From positions 1 through 56,577 of IMG/VR virus record IMGVR_UViG_3300048855_000094: a DNA stretch of 56,577 bases; one strand, given 5' to 3'. The stretch's first letter is position 1. Each line of letters starts with the position of its first letter. This document shows, in pieces, positions 40 to 56,084 of the stretch. The translations under genes were made by a program, and so were the position numbers. This DNA is from a virus (lineage: Duplodnaviria; Caudoviricetes). The notes under the pieces were generated by a model. It was not told where the DNA came from and searched no databases. It saw only the letters and a list, made by a program, of their open reading frames with translations.

Positions 40-126
40 GCCCTGATGGTGAAATTGGTAGACACACCGGACTTAAAATCCGTCGTCCGAAAGGATGTGC
101 CGGTTCGACTCCGGCTCGGGGCACCA
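40..126 (+). tRNA. tRNA-Leu(TAA), prophage integration target
   Basis: Cloverleaf: acceptor stem GCCCTGA/TCGGGGC, D-loop TGGTAGAC, anticodon loop CTTAAAA, long variable arm, T-arm GCCGG-TTCGACT-CCGGC, encoded ACCA end. Confidence 0.95.
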
Positions 127-127
127 T
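103..127 (+). repeat. attL core (tRNA 3' end)
   Basis: GTTCGACTCCGGCTCGGGGCACCAT, repeated at 56060-56084 with one mismatch. Confidence 0.93.
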
Positions 128-2058: not shown

Positions 2059-2202
2059 AGGGAACTCCGGCCCGCCGTACCTCGGCAGGCATGGTAGGTG
2101 GGGAGGTAGTCCCTAAGCAGGGCGCATCGACAGATGCTCTTCACCGGTCACTGCATATCGGTTAAATTCGTCGTTCCGAAAGAGTTCGAGCACCTATAAG
2201 GA

Positions 2203-3216
2203 ATGGCAATGGAGTTGTCTGAGTTTTTGACCAACAACCGCGTAGACGCCAGCACATGGACGGCCGCGAACATCAGCTGGGAAGATTTGACGCTGATTTA
2301 TGATGATCACCAAAGCAGAATTCGGCAGTTAGAAGACACGGCTGATTTTTTCGTAAAAAGTATTCAAGCGTTTGAGGGGGTACATTCGGTTAGGTGGCGT
2401 GTAAAATCTCCTGAGCATTTGATTGAGAAAATAATTCGTAAGCGTGGTGCGGCTGAGCCCAGCGAACGATATATGTCTATTAATGTGCAGAACTATCATG
2501 AAGTGGTGACAGATCTCATCGGTGTAAGAGCGCTTCATCTGTTCAAAGATGACTGTCTGGTTATCCATGATCAGGTCTCAGAAATGTGGGATCTTCACGA
2601 ACGCGCCGTGTCTTATATTCGACAAGGGGACACAACTGATTTCGCTGCGGCGTTGGAGGAACGGGATATAGTCTCGAAAGATCATCCTGCAGGATATCGT
2701 TCAATTCACTATGTTCTGAAGACGAAGCCTGCGTCTCGAGAGACATTGGTAGAAGTGCAAGTAAGAACGGTCTTCGAGGAAGGCTGGTCTGAAATAGATC
2801 ACAAGGTTAGGTACCCTAATTTTTCCAAAAATAGTCAGGTTGAAGATGTTCTCAAGGTGTTCAATCGATTAGCCGGGAGCGCAGATGAGATGGCTGGTTT
2901 CATCAGAAGCCTGAGCTTCGAGCTCGATCTGATGGACAAAGAAGTCGATGCAATAGCCCTAGAGCGAGACTCCGCGTTAGAGGAAATGCAGAAGCTCTTG
3001 ACACAGCTCGCAGATACTCAGGAGACGAAGGCCGAAATGGTCGCGAAAGCCGACCTGCTTCAAAAAGAGCTTAATAAGGTCAAGAAAGCTATAAACCAGA
3101 AGGCGGAGCATGACAGTAAGCTCCGAACCAAGGTGGCTATCAATAACCCCTGGGTTCTTACTGCCGAAGGGGTAAGTGGGCGGAATAAGTACCTTGTTAA
3201 ATCTTTCAAAGGGTAA
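2203..3216 (+). CDS. RelA/SpoT-domain small alarmone synthetase-like protein with C-terminal coiled coil
   Basis: Synthetase motifs RVKS, DLIGVR, GYRSIHY and EVQVRT...WSEIDH; AT-richer than flanks; opposite strand to the surrounding operon. Confidence 0.9.
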   Translation: MAMELSEFLTNNRVDASTWTAANISWEDLTLIYDDHQSRIRQLEDTADFFVKSIQAFEGVHSVRWRVKSPEHLIEKIIRKRGAAEPSERYMSINVQNYHEVVTDLIGVRALHLFKDDCLVIHDQVSEMWDLHERAVSYIRQGDTTDFAAALEERDIVSKDHPAGYRSIHYVLKTKPASRETLVEVQVRTVFEEGWSEIDHKVRYPNFSKNSQVEDVLKVFNRLAGSADEMAGFIRSLSFELDLMDKEVDAIALERDSALEEMQKLLTQLADTQETKAEMVAKADLLQKELNKVKKAINQKAEHDSKLRTKVAINNPWVLTAEGVSGRNKYLVKSFKG

Positions 3217-3223
3217 TGTCTGT

Positions 3224-3418
3224 CAATCGCCGCAGTAGCACACAATGTTTGGTGGTAGTCGGCGAACATGTGGAATTGGTGTTGGGATAATTGAGCATCT
3301 GCTGATAGCTCGGGCGGTCGTCGCTGTCCAGCACTTGGCGCAGCATGTACGCGCTGGTCCGGCCGCCGGAAAATCTGACAACCGTCGTCCCGGACATTTT
3401 GTAGGGGACAGGGTTCAT
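3224..3418 (-). pseudogene. Internally deleted PAPS-reductase-like phage gene
   Basis: N-terminal PP-loop FSGGRTSAYML joined directly to C-terminal-type sequence (DRPSYQQML, then MFAD and CYCGD* in shifted frames). Confidence 0.7.
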
Positions 3419-3463
3419 CCTCGCCAGTGGGGTGATTCATGATTGGGCAGAAGAGGGCGGAGG

Positions 3464-5653
3464 TCAGGCCGCCACAGCTTGCCGCTGAGTAGCCCGCCAT
3501 GGATCGTTGGCCCGCGCGAGCGCGGCCATCGGCGGCGGGCTGACACTATTCCCGCACATGTGGACCTGCTCCGTCTTCGTGAACGCCTTCCCGTCGGCAC
3601 CATGCGTAATGATGTAATCCGGCGGAAAGCCCTGCGCCCGGTACAACTCGGCCGGTTGCAGCATCCGCAGTCGGATGTCGACGATCACATAGGGCGTGCC
3701 CTTGACCATGACGGTGACCAGGCCGAGTCGATCCTTTGTGGTGATCGTCGGGGTAGGCTGGTCGCAGCCGCTCATGTTCTCCGTGCCGTAGTAACTGATC
3801 AGGAAGGCAGCAACACGCAACGCGCCTTCTTCGTGCTCTGGCGACAACTCAAAGCTGACCATCGAGCTCTTGCCTCCGCCGCCTGCCGTGATGGTCGGTG
3901 CGGGCTCATCCAGGTGCTGGCCGACGCTGGCGCCAAACTGGCGCTCCATGAAAGCGGTGACGAGTCCGTGATGAGTTCCGCCGGCGCTGACCGTATGGAG
4001 TGGATCGGCGGCGCCCCGGGCGTCGCAATTGCCACGCAGGTGCAGGAGATGCGCCGTGGCGAGCATCTGGTGTTGCCCGGTCGTGAGCGTCGGTACCGGT
4101 CCTACGATATCTGACGGAGCGTGGCCGGTAGTGTTGGTGACCAGCGTTGCCGTCACCAGCTGTTGCTGGCTGCCGGTATTGGTGACGGTGGTTACCGGGT
4201 CCTCAAGGCTTTTCGCTACGGTGGTGTTGAAGCCGCCGTTCATCTGCGCCATCAAGGCGGTGGCGATGCCCATGGCGTGCGCCGCGCCGGCCGGGCGCTG
4301 ATAGTTGCCGCCGCCGGTGATTGTCGGCAGCGGCTCGTCCAACGCTTTGCCTTCGTCGTTAAACCTGAACTTCACCAGGTGCGCAGCGGCGAGCGCGTGC
4401 TTCACGCCCCCGGCGACGATTGTACCCAGCGGTTGATCCAATCCCGGCACGCGCGGTTGCTGGCCTTCGCGCTCCCCATAACCGGTTTGGATAAGCGTGG
4501 GACTGATCAATGTCAGCTCGCCGCGGTTGGCGCAGGTTACCGTCGGCAGCGGCTGAAGTGGGTCGTTGATACGGTCGCTGCCCTGATGCGTGGCCGGTGC
4601 GATTATTGGGCTCACCACCGAGAATGCGCCACCTTTCGGGTAAGACGTCACGGTGCGCAGCGGCTCGTTCAGCGACTGTACCGTCTCAGTCGACCAGTTC
4701 GCGATCGGCACAATAAACGGGGCAGGGTGGTCGATGACAAACTTCCTCATGCCCCTGGCGATTCGGCGTTTGGTGGCGTCGGCCAGCTCATCCTTGCGGC
4801 CGAAAATGCTCTTACCCAAATCGCTGAAGTCGATGCACTCGGCGGCGGTGCGGTACCTCAGCTGGCCCTTGCCGGGCTTCTTCGCGTGGGTCGGCTCCGG
4901 CCAGACGATCGGCAGTCCGTCGCTCCGAGCGATCATGAACAGGCGTTCGCGGCTGGTGGGCGCGCCGAAGTCGCACGCTTTAATCACTCGCCATTCGACC
5001 ACGTAACCGTGCTGCTCCAGCAGCTCCACAAAACGCTTCCAGGTGCTGCCTTTGCGCTTGGGGTTCGGGACGAGGAATTGCTCACCCACAGGAACAATCT
5101 CGCCGGGTGCGGCAACCACCTTCAGCAGCACTTCTTTGCCCTTTTTGTTCACGCCTGGCACCAGCTTGATGATGCGGCCGGTCGCTTTGTCGCGCTTGGC
5201 GATCAGCGGACCCCATTGCAGGATCTGCTTCACGTTTTCCAGGCTGATGACTCGAGGCCGCTTCTTGCCGGCCCACTTCAAACCGATCCACGACAGGTTG
5301 CGGATCTCGCGCTTGCGGGGCTGACCTCCGGCAGCCTGGCTGTGGTGTGTGCAGTCGGGCGACATGTGGAACCATCCGACCGCTTTTCCGCCGCACTCGG
5401 TGTCCGGATCACCATCAAACACGTCGGTGGTGATGTGCTTGGCGCCTGGGTGGTTGATGGTGTGCATGCTGATCGCTTTGGCGCTGTGGTTCTTCGCCAC
5501 GCTGACCTTGCGCCCGAGGCCCATTTCCAGCCCGGTACCGGCGCCGCCACCGCCGCAGAAGAAGTCCACGACGATCTCCTCGTCTTGCGGGTCGAAGCCG
5601 AGGCCGTACTGCGTTTTGAAATCGAACGGATGTTTCTTCTGATGTGCGGACAT
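3464..5653 (-). CDS. DNA (cytosine-5) methyltransferase
   Basis: Motif I DFFCGGGG, IV SPDCTH, VI ENV, VIII PTSRERLF, IX RML...EL..AQGFP, X GNSV. Confidence 0.93.
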   Translation of the reverse strand: MSAHQKKHPFDFKTQYGLGFDPQDEEIVVDFFCGGGGAGTGLEMGLGRKVSVAKNHSAKAISMHTINHPGAKHITTDVFDGDPDTECGGKAVGWFHMSPDCTHHSQAAGGQPRKREIRNLSWIGLKWAGKKRPRVISLENVKQILQWGPLIAKRDKATGRIIKLVPGVNKKGKEVLLKVVAAPGEIVPVGEQFLVPNPKRKGSTWKRFVELLEQHGYVVEWRVIKACDFGAPTSRERLFMIARSDGLPIVWPEPTHAKKPGKGQLRYRTAAECIDFSDLGKSIFGRKDELADATKRRIARGMRKFVIDHPAPFIVPIANWSTETVQSLNEPLRTVTSYPKGGAFSVVSPIIAPATHQGSDRINDPLQPLPTVTCANRGELTLISPTLIQTGYGEREGQQPRVPGLDQPLGTIVAGGVKHALAAAHLVKFRFNDEGKALDEPLPTITGGGNYQRPAGAAHAMGIATALMAQMNGGFNTTVAKSLEDPVTTVTNTGSQQQLVTATLVTNTTGHAPSDIVGPVPTLTTGQHQMLATAHLLHLRGNCDARGAADPLHTVSAGGTHHGLVTAFMERQFGASVGQHLDEPAPTITAGGGGKSSMVSFELSPEHEEGALRVAAFLISYYGTENMSGCDQPTPTITTKDRLGLVTVMVKGTPYVIVDIRLRMLQPAELYRAQGFPPDYIITHGADGKAFTKTEQVHMCGNSVSPPPMAALARANDPWRATQRQAVAA

Positions 5654-7125: not shown

Positions 7126-7603
7126 ATTGCGACGTGTGGCACAAAAACAGCCGGCGTGCATTTTGACGTCCTACCAATCCGCCGTTGTAAAAGCTGTGCT
7201 AAGAAGACGCGTCGACGTCTCTGCCACCGGAAGGTCGGTAGCTGGTGTAATTGATTGCACTGGCCGTGGCTGTGGGAACGCCCGGGCAGTGATACTTTCG
7301 GTGTGATAGCACAGGCCTCTATTCAGGTTCGAGACTTGTCCGTCGATTGCCGCGGTTTGGTCTCGAGCCTTAAGCGAAGACCCTAAGATGGGGGAAGTGC
7401 CCTGCGCTTAGCTCCCCACTGGAAGGAAGCGTCGGTGATGACCAGACTGCCTCAAGTCCGGGAGGCACTGAGCCGCGCGATCACGTCAGTTGGCAACTTC
7501 CTGCGGCTCCCCTAGCAGGCCAGGCCTCCGACAGTTCGGTGGCGAACAGATTGGGAATGGGCTATACGTATTGGCCGGCAAGGGCCCGGCCGAAGGAGGG
7601 ATC

Positions 7604-8308
7604 ATGGGAAAGAAGCTTGAAATTCTAGGCGGCCTGGCCACAGCGGTATACCTGATTATCATCATTGCGTTTTTAGCTACAAGATTTGGAGAGTTTGCAT
7701 CACTAAAGCTTAACGAGTTGGGTGATTTCTTGGCTGGTTCATTTGGGCCTATCGCTTTTCTGTGGCTTGTTTTAGGGTTTCTACAGCAGGGTCGGGAACT
7801 AAAGTTAAGTACTGACGCACTTCACCTTCAAGCTCAGGAGCTAAAGCATTCCGTAGAACAGCAGTCGATCATGGCGGATGCTGCTGTTAGGCAGATTGAG
7901 GCAGCTCGCCAGGCTTTGGATCTGCAAATACAAGATGCCGAACGCGCGGTGGTAGCTGACTTCGAAGTTACACCATCATTGAAGTCAGGTAAGGACGGGC
8001 TGGTACTTAATAGGATAAAAATTCTGAATAATAAAAATAATGCCTACCGGGTCACTAGCGAATTCCGTGGGGATCTTCCATTTTCTGACCATCGTAACCA
8101 CGGAACGATGAAAGAGGGGGCTCAAGTAGAGGTGGAGATATTGTTTCCGCCGGGATCAAGTGATGGCAAGGGTGGTGAGTTATTAGTCATGTATGAAGAT
8201 GTAAATTCTACTACCAGAATCGACGTATTTATCGTGAAAGTCACTTCAGAAGATTGGCTAAAAATAGATAAAGTCCGAAACAAAAGCTCCCGACTAGTTA
8301 AGGTTTAG
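7604..8308 (+). CDS. Two-TM membrane protein with coiled coil and C-terminal soluble domain
   Basis: Two hydrophobic helices flanking LNELGDFLAG; Gln-rich coiled coil; GGAGGG RBS before ATG 7604. Confidence 0.75.
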   Translation: MGKKLEILGGLATAVYLIIIIAFLATRFGEFASLKLNELGDFLAGSFGPIAFLWLVLGFLQQGRELKLSTDALHLQAQELKHSVEQQSIMADAAVRQIEAARQALDLQIQDAERAVVADFEVTPSLKSGKDGLVLNRIKILNNKNNAYRVTSEFRGDLPFSDHRNHGTMKEGAQVEVEILFPPGSSDGKGGELLVMYEDVNSTTRIDVFIVKVTSEDWLKIDKVRNKSSRLVKV

Positions 8309-9178
8309 ATAATAAAAATAGGTAAGATCTCGCGCGATCGTTGACAAGCAAGATGGCGCGGTGGTGTCATGCGGCAAAACTACCCAGCTATAGTTTGCCG
8401 CAGATCCAATCTTGCTTTCCAGCACTGCTTTAAACTCGTGAGCGATCGCCTCTCGCTGTAGCTCTTCGCCAACCCAGCGCAACTTCAGCACCGGCACCGA
8501 TCCGCTGGTAATCACAGAAATGCGCAGCGTGATCTGCTGCTCGGCCAGTCCCTCAAACGGCACCACATTAAACTGCAAAGCCGCCGGCAGTGTTTCTTTG
8601 CTCCGCGCCTCGATCTGGTCCATCGCACTCCGGCTGGCGCTGGTGTCACCGACGGTTGTCTCCGACTCGCTGGTGGCCTTGATGGTGATCGTGCGTACTG
8701 CGGCGATGGCTTTGGCGATCGGAATCGCGGTGCCTGCTTCGTCGACCGGTGTCAGGTACTGGTGCCAGTCCTCGATCCAGTCGCTCAGGTCCTTCTGCGC
8801 AAGACGGTTACCCGCAATTTGCTGCGCGGCGGTGTACCCGGCAGTTGGCTTGAGCTTCAGCACCGCGCGGTCATCGGCGTGACCAGGTGCTGATGTGGTG
8901 CCGAGGTTGAACAGCAGAACGCAGCTCATTTCTTCCTGATTGATGAAACCCCGAGCGTCAGCCTCGGCGCGGTCGGTGACATACGCGCTGAAGTCCGCCA
9001 GCGAGTGAGTGGCGTAGGTGCCTCGGAAACGGCTGCGGCCGGCCTGGTATTTCTCCAGATCCACAACTTTGATGCCTTCCGGAAGCAATGCAGTGGGCGT
9101 ATCAGTAGGCAGCGCCTTGCCGGTGGCTTCCAGCGAGGTGTCGGTGATGAGTTGTATCGCTTCTTTGCTCAGGGACAT
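8294..9178 (-). CDS. DUF2303/YfdQ-family phage protein
   Basis: RSRFRG, FNLG...PGHADD, WIEDW and AVRTITI motifs; C-terminus probably frameshifted. Confidence 0.8.
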   Translation of the reverse strand: MSLSKEAIQLITDTSLEATGKALPTDTPTALLPEGIKVVDLEKYQAGRSRFRGTYATHSLADFSAYVTDRAEADARGFINQEEMSCVLLFNLGTTSAPGHADDRAVLKLKPTAGYTAAQQIAGNRLAQKDLSDWIEDWHQYLTPVDEAGTAIPIAKAIAAVRTITIKATSESETTVGDTSASRSAMDQIEARSKETLPAALQFNVVPFEGLAEQQITLRISVITSGSVPVLKLRWVGEELQREAIAHEFKAVLESKIGSAANYSWVVLPHDTTAPSCLSTIARDLTYFYYLNLN

Positions 9179-9208
9179 TTCACAGGTCTCGTACGGGGAA
9201 AGGTGGTG

Positions 9209-9556
9209 TCAGGTGCGTGGTTTGATGGGCGCTTCGTCACGACTGAACAGCTGGTCGTGCTTTTCCTGGAACAGCGAAATCTTGCCGCCGGTGCCGACAT
9301 GCATCGGTGTGTCGAGGCTGGTGTTCTCGCTGCGAGTGCCGCGCTTGGTCGGCACTTTGTAGTCGAGCTTGTGTTTGATTTTCACCATCTGGCCTTCCCC
9401 GATCTGGCTGAAGTCGAGGGTGATGACTACCTTTCCGGCTTTGCCATGGTCGACTACGCCGGCGGCCACTTCAGACAAGGCGTGTCCGATCTGGCTAGCG
9501 AACGCGCCGCCGTTGAGCTCTTCGAGGAATTCGGCGGTATCGGTTGGAGTGGACAT
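9209..9556 (-). CDS. Conserved phage protein usually paired with DUF2303
   Basis: FLEELNGGAF...EVAAGVVDHGKAGKV; directly upstream of the DUF2303 gene. Confidence 0.7.
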   Translation of the reverse strand: MSTPTDTAEFLEELNGGAFASQIGHALSEVAAGVVDHGKAGKVVITLDFSQIGEGQMVKIKHKLDYKVPTKRGTRSENTSLDTPMHVGTGGKISLFQEKHDQLFSRDEAPIKPRT

Positions 9557-9799
9557 GCGTGCTTCTCCGATTGGGCGCCAAGCCCGCTTGGTGGGAGTTG
9601 ATGTTGGGATGCTTTTTTGTTGCGCTGCGGGGTCTTGAAAACTCGTCTCACGCCGCTTTCACCCGAATCCGGGTGAAACCATCGGCGGTGAGCGTTTGGC
9701 CTTGCGGCGTTCTGTAGGTTGGCGGCGCGCGGTGGGCGCTCTGGATGGCGCGACCGGTTGCCCCTGGCTGGGAGCAGATGAAGCGGGACTGGTGCTGAC

Positions 9800-14803: not shown

Positions 14804-15232
14804 TCAGATGGCCATGACTACCATGGAAAATCGCCGACCTGACACAAAGGCGTAGCTCAGGCTGAGAGTCAGTAGGAAAGCGATCGCAGTACCCACCGGT
14901 TTCAGCAGACTGTCATTGACCACCAGTGCAATGCAGCTGACGGCCATAGTGGCCAGCATGAAGCCGCAGGTAAGGAACGTATCTCTCATCAGCACCCGAA
15001 AGTGTCCAGTTTTCCGCATGTTCGCTATCAAAGTCTTTTCGACAAGAGCTGTGATTATCGCGACTGCAGCTATCATGAAGCCTAGCAAGGTGGCGCAAAC
15101 CCCGGCAACGACTCCGCCAGCAGCATAAAGCTGCGATGAACTAGCGGCACTCCATTTCCAGAAGCAGAACGCTACCAAGCCAGCTAGTACAATCTTAGGA
15201 AACAGTCTCGTCCAACGAACCGAAGTACTCAT
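14804..15232 (-). CDS. Small ~4-TM membrane protein at the rexB position
   Basis: Four hydrophobic segments in ~142 aa; overlaps the end of the upstream gene. Confidence 0.8.
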   Translation of the reverse strand: MSTSVRWTRLFPKIVLAGLVAFCFWKWSAASSSQLYAAGGVVAGVCATLLGFMIAAVAIITALVEKTLIANMRKTGHFRVLMRDTFLTCGFMLATMAVSCIALVVNDSLLKPVGTAIAFLLTLSLSYAFVSGRRFSMVVMAI

Positions 15233-16103
15233 CAATTTGCCCCTGGCATTCTTCCATGGCCGTGTCTATCGCTCCATACATCGTCCCGCTTGGCGGGTAT
15301 TTCGCATTCGTCTGAACCATTTGGGAAGACGATACGCGATCAGCGATGAGATCAATCGGGTGTTCAATGCCCTCATCATACACATCAGCTCTCGCGCTGG
15401 TTGCCCCAAGGTTTGCTGCATGTGCCAGCGCCGTTTTCAGACGACTCGATAGGTGACCACTTGTATCAGCGCGTCTCATGTCCACGCCCATCTCGATATG
15501 AATTGAGTCAGCGTCAGCCCCATTCATCATCTGCATCAAGCCTCGGGTGAACTCGTCATCGTTGTACATTTCGGGATTAGCCGGACGTGGAATGACGAGC
15601 TTAATGCGTTTGAGCGTTATGTCCCTGCTCATCAGCCGCCGAGCTGCGTCCGGCTCCAGAACCGGTCCAGCAAAAACAGAGGTGGACCACATTTCGCTTA
15701 AAAATCGAGCAAATTGTGCTGCGGTATTACCATGCGTGTTGCGACACCAGGCCAAGATCTGACGTCGGGGATAAAATACAAAAAAATTCTTCTCAACGAG
15801 CCCTTGGTCAGCTTCCAGTTCGATCTCCTCAGCGTCCTCTCCAGCAGCGCCAATTTCGGGAAGGTCGCTGGTTCTGAATTTTCTAAACTGGCCAGCATAG
15901 GTCGCTCCAGCGCCTCGACCCCTTTTCACCATCTTCCAAATTTCTCGGGTGTAGCCCGCCACGCTTAGCGCTTGAGTTGTTTCTCCATCATCATCGACGA
16001 TGTCTGTGAAACCGCTCTCAACTGACGGAATGTCAGCAGTTGGCTGCACAGACATCTGAAAGAAATCAATGTGATAAACCTTGTCCTGTAATACATCTAC
16101 CAT
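15195..16103 (-). CDS. Soluble 302-aa protein at the rexA position (possibly DUF6731-like; unverified)
   Basis: Intact ORF immediately downstream of cI on the same strand; no motif identified with certainty. Confidence 0.75.
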   Translation of the reverse strand: MVDVLQDKVYHIDFFQMSVQPTADIPSVESGFTDIVDDDGETTQALSVAGYTREIWKMVKRGRGAGATYAGQFRKFRTSDLPEIGAAGEDAEEIELEADQGLVEKNFFVFYPRRQILAWCRNTHGNTAAQFARFLSEMWSTSVFAGPVLEPDAARRLMSRDITLKRIKLVIPRPANPEMYNDDEFTRGLMQMMNGADADSIHIEMGVDMRRADTSGHLSSRLKTALAHAANLGATSARADVYDEGIEHPIDLIADRVSSSQMVQTNAKYPPSGTMYGAIDTAMEECQGQIDEYFGSLDETVS

Positions 16104-51691: not shown

Positions 51692-54600
51692 TCATGCGTT
51701 TATGTATCTAAGTTCTGGCAATGGATCAGTACTGGCTTCCTTCAACCAAAGCCCGCACGCATCCTCGGCTAGAAACAGAGTGGTGACGCTCAGCGCCTGC
51801 GAAAGTTTGACGCAGCCGAGCCGCAGCACGGGAATGCTGTCATCCGGGATGCCGGTGCCATCCGGGCGGTTCTCGTAGCTGAGCTCAGACAACATAATCT
51901 TCAGGCCAACGTTTAGCAGCGAGTAGCAGCTAGAAGTGATCCACCCCGGGTGTTGTTTCGATATCTCAGTCAATGTACCTAGCGCCCATGGCAACACCGG
52001 AATCCGGCGGGCTGAAACTACACCTGCCAAGGAGTAGATGAGACCACTGGGAGCGTCATGCTTTTTAGATCCTGGATGCTTTGTCCAGTAGGAGATCACT
52101 CCCGCGATGTAATTGGCGCCAGCGATGTCAGAGTCAAACAGACGCAGAAGAATTTTACCCTCGAGCTCGGCCAGAGCGGCTCTATCGTCTGCGTCAAAAG
52201 CGCAAGCAATATCGGTGCGCAGCATGCTCGAACCAGCTAGAGCTAAGCCGGCCCGAATTTCCTCCACCCATTCCGCCAATGCCGGGTACTTCAACAAGGC
52301 ACTCATTGAGTGTCTGTGTATGAAAGCCGCAATGATCGAATCGATCATATTCATCCGTTCAAAAAACATTTTTTTTAGGTCGTCGAGCCTAGCCAACTCA
52401 TGCTGAATAAAAGCCCACTCTCCATCCCACCAGCGCTTGATTATGAGAAGAGCAGCAACCATCTCGTCTTCCGCCCATTTAGAGCAGTCAACCGCGTAGC
52501 AGAGATTCGTCAAGAAAACGTCCGCATTTCGCAGCGCCCATGATCGGATCTGTGCTCCGTCTGCATTTGGACGTGTCGAGGAAAAATCCTCCAGATGCTG
52601 TTCCAGAATCCAACGCCTGAAACGCTTCTCCACAGATTTTTTTCGAGCTTTGCTCACCCAAGACAGTGTCGCCCAACTGTGATGACCTGGGATCGTCGGC
52701 CAGTCTTTGTCAGATAGAAGTAGACTTTCCAGGGCTAACATCTGGCTTTTGGATATGCCAGCCCAGTCTTTGATCCAAAATAAGCGAGCCCAAATACTCG
52801 CAGTGGAAGGTTCGGGGTCCATTGAACCTCCTTTTTTTGCGGCCGAATACGCCACCAGACAATCAATCAGTGTGTCGACGATTACCTCAATCTCGCTGTT
52901 GGGTTCAGCGATAATCAAATCTTCCTCTCGCCGGTGTAGCAAACTCAGATCTAGCCAATCGGCTTCGTGAAACTGACCGCGAACCTTCAGTTCCGGACGA
53001 TTCGGGATTGAGGAAATTAAGCCTACGGCTTCTAACCGTTCTAACGGTGACATTGCCTCGAAGCAGCGAGCGGTCAAATTTTTAGCATCCTTCCAGAGGT
53101 CGGGATGTAAAACGATCTGTTTCGCGTCATAGAGCCGAACTATCCTTTTAAGCTGGTCCCTAGCAAATCCAGTGGCGCTAATACGAATGATAAGTCTCGA
53201 CAGCACCTGCAGATGGAAACCTATAGTCCGCTCCATCAAATCGGACTGAAACTCTTGAGGAAACATGCGCTCGACGAAATCCATAGAACGTTCGAAAAGC
53301 TCTCGAGCAAGCAGTTCTGGGGTTTTGGCTACCTGGTAGCGGGATAGCCAGCCTGCTGAATGGATGAACTGTGTGGGGTTACGCGGCTCAAGCATTTTGC
53401 TATTCAACAGTCTCATAACAACGCTAAGAACCCTTTGCATCGAATCCGCATGTTGCACCCACCAAGCTGCTTGGCCGAATGAGCCTATATCAAAGGTCGC
53501 ATTCCCTACCCGGGGCACCAGAGACACTCTGTCGGTCAAAGATAGCCATTCAAAGGCGGCACGAATCTTCTTACCATATGAGTGACTGCCGCCAAGGTGT
53601 CGAGTCGTCGAATAGCGGCCTAGTTCAAACAATGGTGTGTAAGTGACAGGTTGGGAGGGCGCAGGGGTTTCTGCATTCAAGTCAGCAGTAAGCTGTAGCA
53701 CCTCTTTTCTCACGTCATGGCCTGCCGCTGCCAGGTCGATTAACCTCTGCGTAACTTCTTCCGGAAGGAATTCTAACGACTCCGGTGGCGCCTGCTGATC
53801 GAGAGTGACGTCGAGTGAATCCTGGAGATAACCTATCGCCAGGCAAGCCCAGGCCTCTTGCGACAGGTATAGGGTTGAATTGGAACGTGATCTTTGATTC
53901 TTTCGGAGGTGTTTCAATCCAACCAAGGCAATCTTCAAACCTGATGCTACATCTCCTAGTTCCCCAAGCAACATACCTTTTCTTATCAGCATGTAGCTAT
54001 CTGGCGATCGGATATCCCAAGTTTTAAGCGACCGTTGTGCAAAATCCCGATCACCAGAGTAGAGCTTAAGCAAAATTCCCTCATACATAATTTTATCGGC
54101 CACCCGCAGGTCGGTTGGGAAGTATCGCAGCAGCGAGTCGCTTATCGCGGTGAACTCAGTCTGGCGCAAGGCCTCCCTTGCCCAACGCAGGACGGCCAGT
54201 CCGAGTTCTCTCCAGCGCTGTTGAAAGCCCTGTGGAGTATGGGCCTCGAACTTTTTCAAATCTGATTTTGCGGCAGCGTTGACACCGGTGGACTGCGGGG
54301 CTGTGAGCTCGAGTAGCTGAACCGCAAGCGTTGCAGACCCATCATCTAAAGATTGAAGCAGTACTTCTTGGTGCCACGCATACTCTGCCAAAATCACAAT
54401 CCCTACATGAGGGGTTGTGCTCAGAAAGTGCTCTTTTACTTGAGCGGATCGTAACAGGTCATGAAGTTCCGTGACGTTAGAATAGAATCGCTTTCTGACG
54501 GCGTAGGGGGTTACAAACCAACCAGGATAGCTTTTTCTCGTCTCGCTCATACTGCTAAATGCAGCGACAGCCTGCTCATAGTGTTGTTCACTACCCTTTG

Positions 54601-55507
54601 ATGCGCGCAGCAATAGATTCAGCTCAGCAGGTCGCTTGCCCCAGTCGTCCACTTTTGAAGTCAACGGCTTCTTAAAAATTTCAAAGAGCGTTGCGAAGCG
54701 AGCAGCATAATCCCACTCTTCCACCCCATCTTTTGTTGGGAGAACGACAGCAGTAACCCTGCGTGATTCCAGTAGTTTTTGCATCCCCAAACTCGGTGGG
54801 CGGATTACAAATAGATAGATGGGAAGAGCATGCTCGTCGAGCATGTCCCGCACCCAGCCAATCCAGAACAGAAAGTTCGGGTCTTCTCCGGAAAATCCTA
54901 TTAAGCAAAAAACATTCTCCAGCATAGATTGGCGCACTAAATTAATGAAGGGTGCGGATTTCTCTGGGTAGCGGCGGTAGTCCTCTTCAGTGAAAATAAA
55001 CGGCCGCTGTGATGGGAATGAGCCGTGAAGTTTCACAATACGTCGGCGGCCTAGAATTTTCGACTGAGGGATATCCTCTCTGCACATAACCGTATAGTGA
55101 GCTTTGTCTACTACTGCTTCAGCGGCACGCTCCAGTAGCGTGTCGTAGTTAGTTGTGAAGATTTCTGACCAAGGCAATGACAGCAAGCTACGATGCAAAA
55201 GTCCGGGTGCTACGCGCTCGTCTGGAATCAAACGTTTCAACAGCTCTTCAAGCCCTGGCTTGGAAAACACCCTTGCATACTGCTCACCGAGTTGCGTCAC
55301 AGTGCTCGCAGAAAAATCGCCTAACTCTGCCCCATCCGGATTGAGCTCACGCCAAAGCTCTTGGGCTACTTCGTGCCACATAGCTAGTTCGTCACCGTTT
55401 TCGGCATTTTTGCTGAAGCCTGCTCCCACCATGACTGCTGCATTGCCATTTTCCAATGCTCGACGGACGGCATTGTAGTGCACCTGATCGTTCGGACTGC
55501 TTGTCAT
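51692..55507 (-). CDS. SIR2-domain defence-associated sirtuin (DSR1-like), 1271 aa
   Basis: VMVGAGFS, TTNYDTLLE, KLHGS and LIGFSG.DPNF motifs, then ~1000 aa of helical sequence; GGAGG RBS. Confidence 0.85.
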   Translation of the reverse strand: MTSSPNDQVHYNAVRRALENGNAAVMVGAGFSKNAENGDELAMWHEVAQELWRELNPDGAELGDFSASTVTQLGEQYARVFSKPGLEELLKRLIPDERVAPGLLHRSLLSLPWSEIFTTNYDTLLERAAEAVVDKAHYTVMCREDIPQSKILGRRRIVKLHGSFPSQRPFIFTEEDYRRYPEKSAPFINLVRQSMLENVFCLIGFSGEDPNFLFWIGWVRDMLDEHALPIYLFVIRPPSLGMQKLLESRRVTAVVLPTKDGVEEWDYAARFATLFEIFKKPLTSKVDDWGKRPAELNLLLRASKGSEQHYEQAVAAFSSMSETRKSYPGWFVTPYAVRKRFYSNVTELHDLLRSAQVKEHFLSTTPHVGIVILAEYAWHQEVLLQSLDDGSATLAVQLLELTAPQSTGVNAAAKSDLKKFEAHTPQGFQQRWRELGLAVLRWAREALRQTEFTAISDSLLRYFPTDLRVADKIMYEGILLKLYSGDRDFAQRSLKTWDIRSPDSYMLIRKGMLLGELGDVASGLKIALVGLKHLRKNQRSRSNSTLYLSQEAWACLAIGYLQDSLDVTLDQQAPPESLEFLPEEVTQRLIDLAAAGHDVRKEVLQLTADLNAETPAPSQPVTYTPLFELGRYSTTRHLGGSHSYGKKIRAAFEWLSLTDRVSLVPRVGNATFDIGSFGQAAWWVQHADSMQRVLSVVMRLLNSKMLEPRNPTQFIHSAGWLSRYQVAKTPELLARELFERSMDFVERMFPQEFQSDLMERTIGFHLQVLSRLIIRISATGFARDQLKRIVRLYDAKQIVLHPDLWKDAKNLTARCFEAMSPLERLEAVGLISSIPNRPELKVRGQFHEADWLDLSLLHRREEDLIIAEPNSEIEVIVDTLIDCLVAYSAAKKGGSMDPEPSTASIWARLFWIKDWAGISKSQMLALESLLLSDKDWPTIPGHHSWATLSWVSKARKKSVEKRFRRWILEQHLEDFSSTRPNADGAQIRSWALRNADVFLTNLCYAVDCSKWAEDEMVAALLIIKRWWDGEWAFIQHELARLDDLKKMFFERMNMIDSIIAAFIHRHSMSALLKYPALAEWVEEIRAGLALAGSSMLRTDIACAFDADDRAALAELEGKILLRLFDSDIAGANYIAGVISYWTKHPGSKKHDAPSGLIYSLAGVVSARRIPVLPWALGTLTEISKQHPGWITSSCYSLLNVGLKIMLSELSYENRPDGTGIPDDSIPVLRLGCVKLSQALSVTTLFLAEDACGLWLKEASTDPLPELRYINA

Positions 55508-56059
55508 TACTTCCTCCATCAATGCGAGTTACCGGCGTCGGGCCTCAGCACTTGGAGCTTAGCGTGATTGATTAGGTCAGGATATAGAATCTTCTGTGCG
55601 CCAACGGGGGGTGGGTTGTAGCGGTGTTCGTGATCAAGTGTGCCTGGCTCTGAAAAGATGTATAGGCGTTCCGAATGCCGATGACAGGCCGCTTCCTAAC
55701 ATTGGCCGGCAGAATGCAAACTGTTACCGGAGGATGGTTTCGAGCCGTGCCGAAGCCGCACGGTCCGCACTCCGAGCTGCAGACCTTGGCGAACCTCGAA
55801 TATCAGAGATATCAGGTAAATACCTAAAAGCCATCGTTGCCCCAAATCATCGAAGCCGCGCGTGAGTCGGGATGTGCGCGGACGTGAAAGCCGGTACGCA
55901 GCGCTCTGTCAGAGAGAAGCTGGTCAGGATTCATTAAATCCGGCAGGACTCCGGGGGAGGGGGCAAAGAGTCCAGCGAAAGCGAAACAGTACATCCATCA
56001 GTACAGCAAAACCGTGGATGTTCAATGTAGCCAAGCAAATACTGGGCCTTGTTCAATCA

Positions 56060-56084
56060 GTTCGACTCCAGCTCGGGGCACCAT
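56060..56084 (+). repeat. attR core
   Basis: GTTCGACTCCAGCTCGGGGCACCAT, 24/25 identical to 103-127. Confidence 0.93.

Follow-up and report, generated by a model that had tools for sequence, protein, structure and literature searches.

We analysed the window, a complete provirus record from IMG/VR (IMGVR_UViG_3300048855_000094, Caudoviricetes; 56,577 bases) that holds a prophage of ~56 kb, and found close to its integrase end an intact gene of the RelA/SpoT homologue (RSH) family (2203..3216, + strand). The gene encodes a solo protein with a complete synthetase active site, a predicted catalytic head of the RelP/RelQ type and a variable, mostly helical C-terminal extension. We tentatively explain it as a latent stand-alone alarmone synthetase that is carried as mobile prophage cargo and serves exclusion or defence, an explanation that we prefer while giving it somewhat less than even odds. 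An initial annotation of the sequence had proposed a single-gene, self-inhibited defence enzyme, which is a possible reading. The gene and the parts of its product, with residues counted from the ATG at 2203, are as follows.

2203..3216, + strand: RelA/SpoT-family small-alarmone-synthetase-like gene, intact open reading frame (ORF) of 337 amino acids starting with ATG
2203..2913, + strand: catalytic core, residues 1-237, predicted to comprise N-terminal helices, the SYNTH fold and the beginning of a long helix, as in RelP/RelQ
2398..2820, + strand: match to Pfam RelA_SpoT (PF04607), residues 66-206, E 5.2e-21, 75.5 bits for a cut-off of 27
2833..3123, + strand: two long predicted helices, residues 211-271 and 277-307 (DSSP on the AlphaFold2 model, predicted local distance difference test (pLDDT) 67-86 by blocks)
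3124..3213, + strand: variable tail, residues 308-337, predicted disordered (pLDDT 41-48) and unalignable among relatives

RelA_SpoT was the sole Pfam family over its cut-off in the 337-residue protein, which thus lacks HD hydrolase, TGS and ACT domains. A six-frame search of the whole record returned this single PF04607 match (77 bits) and no match to HD_4 hydrolases, in agreement with the annotation of a solo synthetase without a hydrolase. Nearly the full length of the protein (residues 3-308) also matched phrog_2211, a PHROGs phage family of unknown function (2.8e-81). Translation probably starts at the ATG at 2209 (335 amino acids) rather than at 2203, because the AAGGA at 2198-2202 touches the latter and sits 6 nucleotides ahead of the former, and because the homologues begin with MEL or MDR.

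The catalytic residues are fully conserved. We aligned 56 of the 120 listed homologues, about every second one and of all lengths. R64, the residues expected to bind the donor triphosphate (R66, K68, K76 and R79), the magnesium-binding D104 in its D-x-x-G-x-R motif (with G107 and R109), the G-loop (G164, Y165, R166, S167 and H169) and the E-x-Q-x-R-T motif (E184, Q186 and R188) were invariant in all 56 sequences. These motifs line up with those of Staphylococcus aureus RelP, and we assign their roles as described for FaRel2 and RelP (PMC11782079). His72 is specific to this family and is replaced by Ser in RelP. Hence, the earlier statement that all four synthetase motifs are intact is borne out; these motifs are numbered Syn1-4.

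The head was then compared with known structures. An AlphaFold2 model built on the 56-sequence alignment had a mean pLDDT of 83.3 and a predicted template-modelling score of 0.70, with pLDDT of 89-98 for residues 1-190. The loop 201-208 (KVRYPNFS) scored below 50, though R203, Y204, P205, N206 and F207 are invariant or near-invariant; it may possibly become ordered by the substrate. Foldseek placed RelP/RelQ entries on top (E 1.2e-8), and among the entries shown the first one other than a small synthetase of the RelP/RelQ type came at rank 40, followed by CapRel at rank 41 and FaRel2 at rank 42. We ran VIA-align on the top 1000 Foldseek chains. Ten entries of RelQ, RelP and related small alarmone synthetases (SAS) matched model residues ~25-245 with Z of 14.9-15.9 and root-mean-square deviations (rmsd) of 2.4-3.5 over 170-184 residues, the best being RelQ (Z 15.9) and RelP (Z 15.8) with rmsd of 2.4-2.9 over 177-182 residues. 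The scores of other enzymes were lower: Bacillus subtilis Rel 12.2, an exported Streptomyces synthetase 11.8, CapRel 10.6 (only over model residues 22-230), Tas1 10.3 and FaRel2 7.2. Sequence searches gave the same order. The best phmmer match was to RelP/RelQ (9e-9), and the family profile ranked RelP/RelQ-type sequences first in the PDB (3.3e-11). At E ≤ 10 this profile returned 51 rows, of which eight were RSH matches, all of the RelP/RelQ type, and the others coiled-coil proteins aligned at positions 218-344. Since sequence searches and comparison of the predicted fold both rank RelP/RelQ first, we class the head as a RelP/RelQ-type enzyme, ~5 Z units nearer to RelP/RelQ than to any toxSAS.

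RelP (SAS2) and RelQ (SAS1) of Firmicutes (PDB 6EWZ, 6FGX, 5DED and 5DEC) are likewise single SYNTH-domain enzymes with the same ATP, magnesium and G-loop residues, and the structural match takes in the helix that follows their catalytic domain. However, identity to them is only 22-24%, and the NCBIfam model of the RelQ equivalog (YjbM, NF053588) gave 35.4 bits for a cut-off of 320. The window protein also has ~100 additional C-terminal residues, which make up the rest of the long helix, a return helix and the disordered tail. Finally, RelP and RelQ are core genes, whereas the present family is mobile and patchy. With such a head, the protein would most likely be an oligomeric nucleotide pyrophosphokinase that uses ATP as pyrophosphate donor and the 3'-OH of a purine nucleotide as acceptor, with (p)ppGpp or (p)ppApp as its product. 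The isoelectric points of the query are 4.27 for the N-terminus, 6.33 for the SYNTH domain, 5.13 for the helices and 10.0 for the tail (residues 312-337), and the core (residues 1-237) has a median of 5.9 across the 56 sequences. Because the core is acidic to neutral, we would favour a nucleotide acceptor over tRNA.

The same likeness fits a lysogenic-conversion enzyme, i.e., a non-toxic accessory (p)ppGpp synthetase that acts as a low or stress-responsive alarmone source, senses no phage and has no abortive role. Its effects would be on stress tolerance, persistence, biofilm or prophage maintenance. We regard this as doubtful, yet it has much in its favour: RelP/RelQ are the closest enzymes in sequence and fold, the helix through which they oligomerise is conserved (PMC11782079), no antitoxin occurs anywhere in the family, and many distant homologues lie among housekeeping genes. 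Moreover, genomes with a copy keep both RelA and SpoT, as seen in two Pseudomonas genomes and one Vibrio genome, so that a hydrolase is available. It fits less well with a very patchy distribution, since only seven of 301 sampled genomes of one Pseudomonas-type genus (that of the genome of locus L021) had a match at E ≤ 1e-20. Five of these matches were full-length (41-66% identity) and two were shorter synthetases of ~240 amino acids. The recurrent finding of such genes in exchangeable slots of prophages and of small plasmids, the hypervariable C-terminus and the defence genes in the same prophage also speak against it.

The C-terminal extension sets the family apart. Mean identity to the query over the 55 relatives was 44% for residues 1-58, 62% for residues 59-237 and 28% for residues 238-311, beyond which the tails were unalignable. 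The first 30 residues of helix 1 lie within the RelP/RelQ structural match and include the invariant F220, N221, R222, G225, A227 and D228. The extension had been annotated as ~90 residues of coiled coil; some 95 residues are indeed predicted as helical and show heptad periodicity at the level of the family, but they form two helices with a break rather than one rod. A heptad scan of the single sequence was suggestive (its maximum was reached by 8 of 200 shuffles). Over the alignment, the fraction of L, I, V, M or F per column of residues 238-305 had a power of 1.08 at a period of 3.5 residues, compared with 0.106 ± 0.10 in shuffled columns, and none of 2000 shuffles reached it. The near-invariant hydrophobic positions are 241, 244, 248, 259, 262, 266, 269, 283, 286, 290 and 293, and the stretch 270-282, poor in hydrophobic residues, coincides with the break of the model at 272-276. 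Model residues 207-311 resemble helical hairpins such as the DHp of the histidine kinase ERS1 (Z 7.0, rmsd 2.3, 97 residues), the DHp of a LOV kinase and CorA. These matches (Z 6.5-7.0) are weak for helices and, since such scores are common for long helices, they show no more than two antiparallel helices. The oligomerisation interface of RelP/RelQ is described as formed by their C-terminal helices (PMC11782079). By analogy, we infer that the hairpin may prolong an interface of this type and pair between subunits.

The tail has diverged most. C-terminal regions range from 94 to 238 residues among the 56 sequences. In the Pseudomonas subclade, the tails often consist of a hydrophobic run, an N/D/G-G turn, a second hydrophobic run, a proline and a basic stretch (P0006, P0010, P0012, P0016, P0031, P0033, P0036, P0038 and P0041), of which the query has the version VAINNPWVLTAEG...KYLVKSFKG, and a K-rich patch closes the sequence of many family members. 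When only the last 100 residues served as query against 1.84 billion representatives, one protein of 85 residues matched, and we dropped the idea that they form an independent module. No second Pfam family was clearly over its cut-off in the 27 proteins scanned of the 46 members with at least 395 amino acids; one long-tailed member (L045) had a borderline match to LAGLIDADG_WhiA (24.3 bits for a cut-off of 23.2, with no single stretch passing). A search for longer proteins found one relative, P0121 (670 amino acids, from one metagenome contig), in which RelA_SpoT is combined with a CYTH triphosphate-tunnel domain. A single fused form is too slender a basis for further conclusions.

These data bear on whether the protein is a fused toxin-antitoxin like CapRel, i.e., an enzyme that pyrophosphorylates tRNA at its 3'-CCA terminus and is restrained by its own C-terminal part as long as no phage protein is bound to it. 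CapRel-SJ46 (a fused toxSAS, PDB 7ZTB) offers a precedent (PMC9712102), being likewise a single prophage-borne polypeptide with an RSH head and a C-terminal extension that is its least conserved part. Its regulatory domain is described in the same source as a pseudo-zinc-finger (a three-stranded sheet and a helix) without cysteines, with a YXXY neutralisation motif. In the window protein, only the head aligns with CapRel, and a helical hairpin with a disordered tail replaces the pseudo-zinc-finger. No YXXY motif was found beyond residue 237 in any of the 56 sequences, and the model has no β strand beyond residue 189, its last 30 residues having pLDDT below 50. The initial annotation had also noted the lack of obvious zinc-finger cysteines and suggested a C-terminus of a different type from that of CapRel. 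Cysteines are in fact absent after residue 237 in 50 of the 56 sequences, yet CapRel's C-terminal domain lacks them as well; the difference in type is upheld by the missing motif and strands. The structural scores of CapRel and FaRel2, far below the 15.9 of RelQ, the failure of the family profile to reach CapRel at E up to 10 and the acidic to neutral core, as far as charge can be taken to indicate the acceptor, all argue in the same direction. Hence, as judged from the sequences and the model, the protein is not a CapRel, because it has neither the β-sheet pseudo-zinc-finger nor YXXY, and we consider a CapRel-like mode of action quite improbable.

The enzyme seems to travel without a partner. 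A homology search gave 3819 proteins at E ≤ 0.001 among 5336 candidates, a set that includes other small synthetases; the best relatives were 55-73% identical and mostly from Pseudomonas by their source names. We collected 80 genome and 31 viral loci and called the RSH ORF in 107 of the 111 (L008, L035, L053 and L088 were dropped), which with the window makes 108 loci with RSH ORFs of 306-579 amino acids. All ORFs of at least 45 amino acids within 3 kb were clustered using BLASTP at 1e-6, a sensitivity at which fast-evolving small partners could be missed. No neighbour was conserved: the largest cluster covered 8 of the 108 loci, in mixed positions and strands, and the next one six. Tightly linked co-oriented ORFs of at least 50 amino acids occurred upstream in 37 and downstream in 28 of the 108 loci, and were mutually unrelated. 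At this sensitivity, the absence of a partner appears to be a property of the whole family. This distinguishes it from the bicistronic toxSAS (FaRel, FaRel2, PhRel and PhRel2), beside which an adjacent antitoxin is conserved. The toxSAS are defined by conserved two- or three-gene operons in a survey that also reports 63 prophage regions around 12 SAS subfamilies (Jimmy 2020, PMC7229694).

A partner might also be encoded elsewhere. GRel/Pag1B of the type I PANGU system has a synthetase head, an α-helical linker and a C-terminal part, as does the window protein, and is described as an inert tetramer that is non-toxic alone and defends via pppGpp once a nucleoid protein binds (preprint 10.64898/2026.04.06.716658). 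The comparison is by description only. PANGU is bicistronic with a gene for a nucleoid-associated protein, whereas no such neighbour is conserved here and the genes on either side of the window RSH gene are a 102-residue ORF without a family and a methylase. An effector that needs an unlinked partner in this way, or a stabilisation module of mobile elements, seems to us improbable. Besides the layout of Pag1B, the source of one homologue calls it 'addiction module component', and another resides on a plasmid of only 5.1 kb (pMARC1). Against this, none of the 108 loci has a conserved neighbour, the tail is short and disordered instead of a folded acidic domain, and a gene that travels alone across phyla is unlikely to depend on one specific partner.

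The family is widespread and moves between prophages and plasmids. We found 102 matches among plasmid records, 95 of them in Bacillus and the others in Paracoccus, Ralstonia, Fusobacterium, Ilyobacter, Geobacillus and Caballeronia. The copy on a Bacillus mycoides plasmid (350 amino acids) has the same layout, including the K-rich end. The pMARC1 copy of Paracoccus is reported to lie in an AT-rich 'plasmid islet' (35.7% vs 55.1% GC), and islets in sister plasmids hold a retron-type reverse transcriptase (pMOS7) or an SMC-like ATPase (pMARC2) (PMC3832669). Phage records gave 14 weak or partial matches, the best being Ralstonia phage YO102_1 (44.6% identity over residues 1-238) and a Vibrio element (41.6%).

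The protein probably belongs to a catalogued but uncharacterised subfamily. This is possibly FpRel, whose range was given as Firmicutes, α- and β-proteobacteria and Fusobacteria (Atkinson 2011, PMC3153485). The range fits that of the relatives found (Bacillus, Fusobacterium, Ilyobacter, Paracoccus, Ralstonia and Caballeronia plasmids), range being the sole basis of this comparison. We found no published function of this family or of FpRel in the literature searched. An identity with RelV seems unlikely, as a Vibrio genome encodes a family member and, separately, a 258-residue protein weakly matched by PF04607. The latter is probably RelV, the Vibrio synthetase of ~259 amino acids, judging from its length and host. 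The PADLOC candidate family PDC-S33, a single-gene RelA/SpoT system, matched the window protein partially (4.6e-7, residues 149-240 on model positions 124-222 of 349).

The locus suggests that the gene was acquired independently of its surroundings. The element is a lambdoid prophage of a Pseudomonas-type bacterium integrated at tRNA-Leu, with the following features besides the RSH gene.

40-126: tRNA-Leu(taa)
103..127, + strand: 25-nucleotide attL core at the 3' end of tRNA-Leu(taa)
289-1515, + strand: integrase
1512-1727, - strand: AlpA-type excisionase
1750-2058, - strand: 102-amino-acid ORF without a family
2150..3300: low-GC single-gene island of ~1.15 kb (GC 0.41-0.52, flanks 0.60-0.66)
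3206..3418, - strand: 70-amino-acid ORF at the right edge of the island, the first ~30 residues resembling a PAPS-reductase N-terminus
3245-3442, + strand: co-oriented 65-amino-acid ORF starting 29 nucleotides 3' of the RSH gene, antisense to the conserved PAPS-reductase fragment
3464-5653, - strand: C5 cytosine methylase, 729 amino acids
5875-7125, + strand: DzbB-like gene, 416 amino acids, with a partial match to DzbB (Dazbog; 3.5e-12, residues 232-383) and a weak one to MauJ
7490-8308, + strand: membrane-protein-like gene, 272 amino acids, phrog_9267, with hydrophobic segments and no PADLOC match
beyond 8308, - strand: DUF2303, exonuclease, RecT and cI genes
15195-16103, - strand: DUF6731 protein, 302 amino acids, in a lower-GC stretch adjoining the cI-type repressor, with no PADLOC match
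51692-55522, - strand: full-length DSR2-type SIR2 defence gene, 1276 amino acids (PADLOC Dsr2 1e-149, residues 17-1219; Pfam SIR2_2)
56060-56084: attR, identical to the attL core at 24 of 25 positions

With attL at 103-127, the RSH gene lies 2.1 kb inside the element. It had been described as a moron inserted against the direction of the early operon. Both points hold, since it is on the + strand among the minus-strand genes of AlpA, the 102-residue ORF, the methylase, RecT, the exonuclease and cI, its GC content is foreign, and it has no orthologue in 80 sister prophages. The further claim of no co-oriented partner needs amending: none is conserved, but one co-oriented ORF exists (3245-3442), which was not found beside homologues. 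The three + strand genes (RSH, DzbB-like and 7490-8308) each lie within a low-GC island. The DzbB-like gene is 2.7 kb from the RSH gene; DzbA was not found. The DSR2 gene also occupies a low-GC stretch, 0.5 kb from attR, so that both ends of the prophage carry cargo, DSR2 near attR and the RSH gene near attL. The place of the DUF6731 gene beside the cI-type repressor is a classic moron position. The methylase is unusually long; its Pfam domain is matched in three stretches, and at least 80 viral contigs conserve it at 75-95%.

The borders of the island raise the question of whether the gene is a passenger without a current function in the prophage. The 70-residue ORF, which in the window lies downstream of the methylase, may be read as a remnant, a rearrangement scar: matches of 25-30 residues to it, 86-96% identical, occur upstream of the methylase in six of the 80 sister prophages. 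Such a fragment next to the RSH gene would suit a passenger, and so would the result of a consensus scan of the + strand near the gene, in which no sigma-70-like promoter or terminator passed. By eye, we noted a weak promoter-like TTCACC-N17-TAAATT (2148-2176, 8 of 12 positions). The repeats flanking the gene are short and chance-like. But the frame is intact, all catalytic residues are kept and conservation of the core is strong over thousands of relatives, which makes a functionless passenger highly improbable.

The sister prophages show how this slot is used. They are the best 80, by methylase identity (75-95%), of 538 viral stretches found with the methylase. In L181, one of these 80, the place of the RSH gene between methylase and excisionase/integrase is taken by a different RelA/SpoT gene (8531-9658, - strand, 375 amino acids), convergent with the methylase. 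Its product shares 27% identity with the query over 175 residues, is of the PDC-S33 type (PADLOC 2.8e-18) and reaches CapRel in the PDB at 6e-5. Relatives of the 102-residue ORF (1750-2058) recur in four of the 80 without any RSH gene, and this ORF is thus part of the phage backbone. Downstream of the methylase the gene content varies greatly, with 908 ORFs in 530 clusters.

In four homologues (L082, L083, L193 and L277) a conserved element lies 1-41 nucleotides 5' of the called RSH start, and L081 has a degenerate copy. The element, of ~31-45 nucleotides, reads GGTGGCAATTTGG-N3-GGG-N-TGGGGTATTAC, often after CCGTGACCGG. The following copies were placed.

L082, 5937-5967: upstream element
L083, 5935-5965: upstream element
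L277, 6408-6438: upstream element

It also precedes eight other counter-oriented ORFs in methylase-type prophages and has exact matches in at least 120 viral contigs. In the 80 loci listed (L206-L285) it occurs in 81 copies, 78 of which are followed within 2-107 nucleotides (median 30) by an ORF of at least 50 amino acids; these 78 ORFs form 55 clusters. The window lacks the element. The RNA fold 3' of it is not special (z -1.15), and readings of it as a sigma-54 or LexA-box site were considered by eye and dropped. From its sequence context it looks like a portable promoter or regulatory cassette for prophage morons. Family RSH genes are thus part of a diverse, swappable pool of prophage cargo behind a portable regulatory element.

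The neighbours of the homologues point in part to defence. We scanned 150 of the 201 called nearest neighbours, from 81 of the 107 loci, with a PADLOC threshold of 1e-12. Integrases flank six loci and other phage or mobile genes ~15. Established defence families adjoin five of the 81 (PD-T7-5, bSEFIR, DRT, Shedu and a type I restriction enzyme), and PADLOC candidate families flank eight further loci. The other PADLOC matches were two methylases and two that we judged false (an IstB called DrmD, and PolA). Pfam neighbours also included NACHT, Schlafen-AlbA, DUF4062 and DUF2726. This neighbourhood is suggestive, not decisive.

A latent synthetase serving exclusion or defence could work as follows. 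The gene would have entered the tRNA-Leu-integrated prophage close to its integrase end, as a cargo cassette of one gene. The C-terminal hairpin would extend the RelP/RelQ oligomerisation helix and probably set the oligomeric and activity states, and among the parts of the protein the disordered, fast-evolving tail would be the likeliest to regulate or sense. The enzyme would have low activity in the lysogen, possibly through self-inhibition, and would raise alarmone levels on a cue, for instance superinfection; this would slow host metabolism and limit the competing phage. Raised (p)ppGpp is reported to delay lysis by T7, and phage portal proteins to inhibit RelA/SpoT (preprint 10.64898/2026.01.27.700999).

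Several observations weigh against this explanation. The closest relatives, RelP and RelQ, are non-toxic housekeeping enzymes. An established defence family is the nearest neighbour in those five of 81 loci only, and many loci from metagenome-assembled genomes of Acidobacteriota, Bacteroidota and Firmicutes have plain housekeeping neighbours. The cargo pool behind the upstream element does not consist of recognisably known defence genes: we ran PADLOC on 50 of the 55 cluster representatives, leaving out the short low-complexity L246, L247, L259, L260 and L272, and at 1e-5 no match was obtained for any of the 49 proteins other than RSH. No promoter near the window gene passed the scan. Weak constraint, and not an arms race, may be what lets a helical linker and a disordered tail diverge so fast. 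Finally, the AlphaFold2 model is a monomer, which shows neither an oligomer nor whether the hairpin packs against the active site.

We entertain, with considerable doubt, a more specific form of the defence explanation. The family might be a new kind of single-gene antiviral sensor-effector, in which the hairpin, as a DHp-like dimerisation module, and the hypervariable tail gate a RelP/RelQ-like synthetase, with the tail recognising phage components. If so, a lone gene that moves among prophages and plasmids of many phyla could impose a stringent-like arrest at superinfection and bypass the silencing of RelA/SpoT by phage proteins. Three wirings of alarmone synthetases in defence have been published: toxin-antitoxin pairs, the fused form seen in CapRel, and activation by a partner in the case of PANGU's GRel. 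Restriction of phages by the present family would add a fourth architecture and link the stringent-response chemistry of RelP/RelQ directly to immunity. If instead it restricts no phage, the family would offer a clear-cut example of an alarmone source acting in lysogenic conversion.

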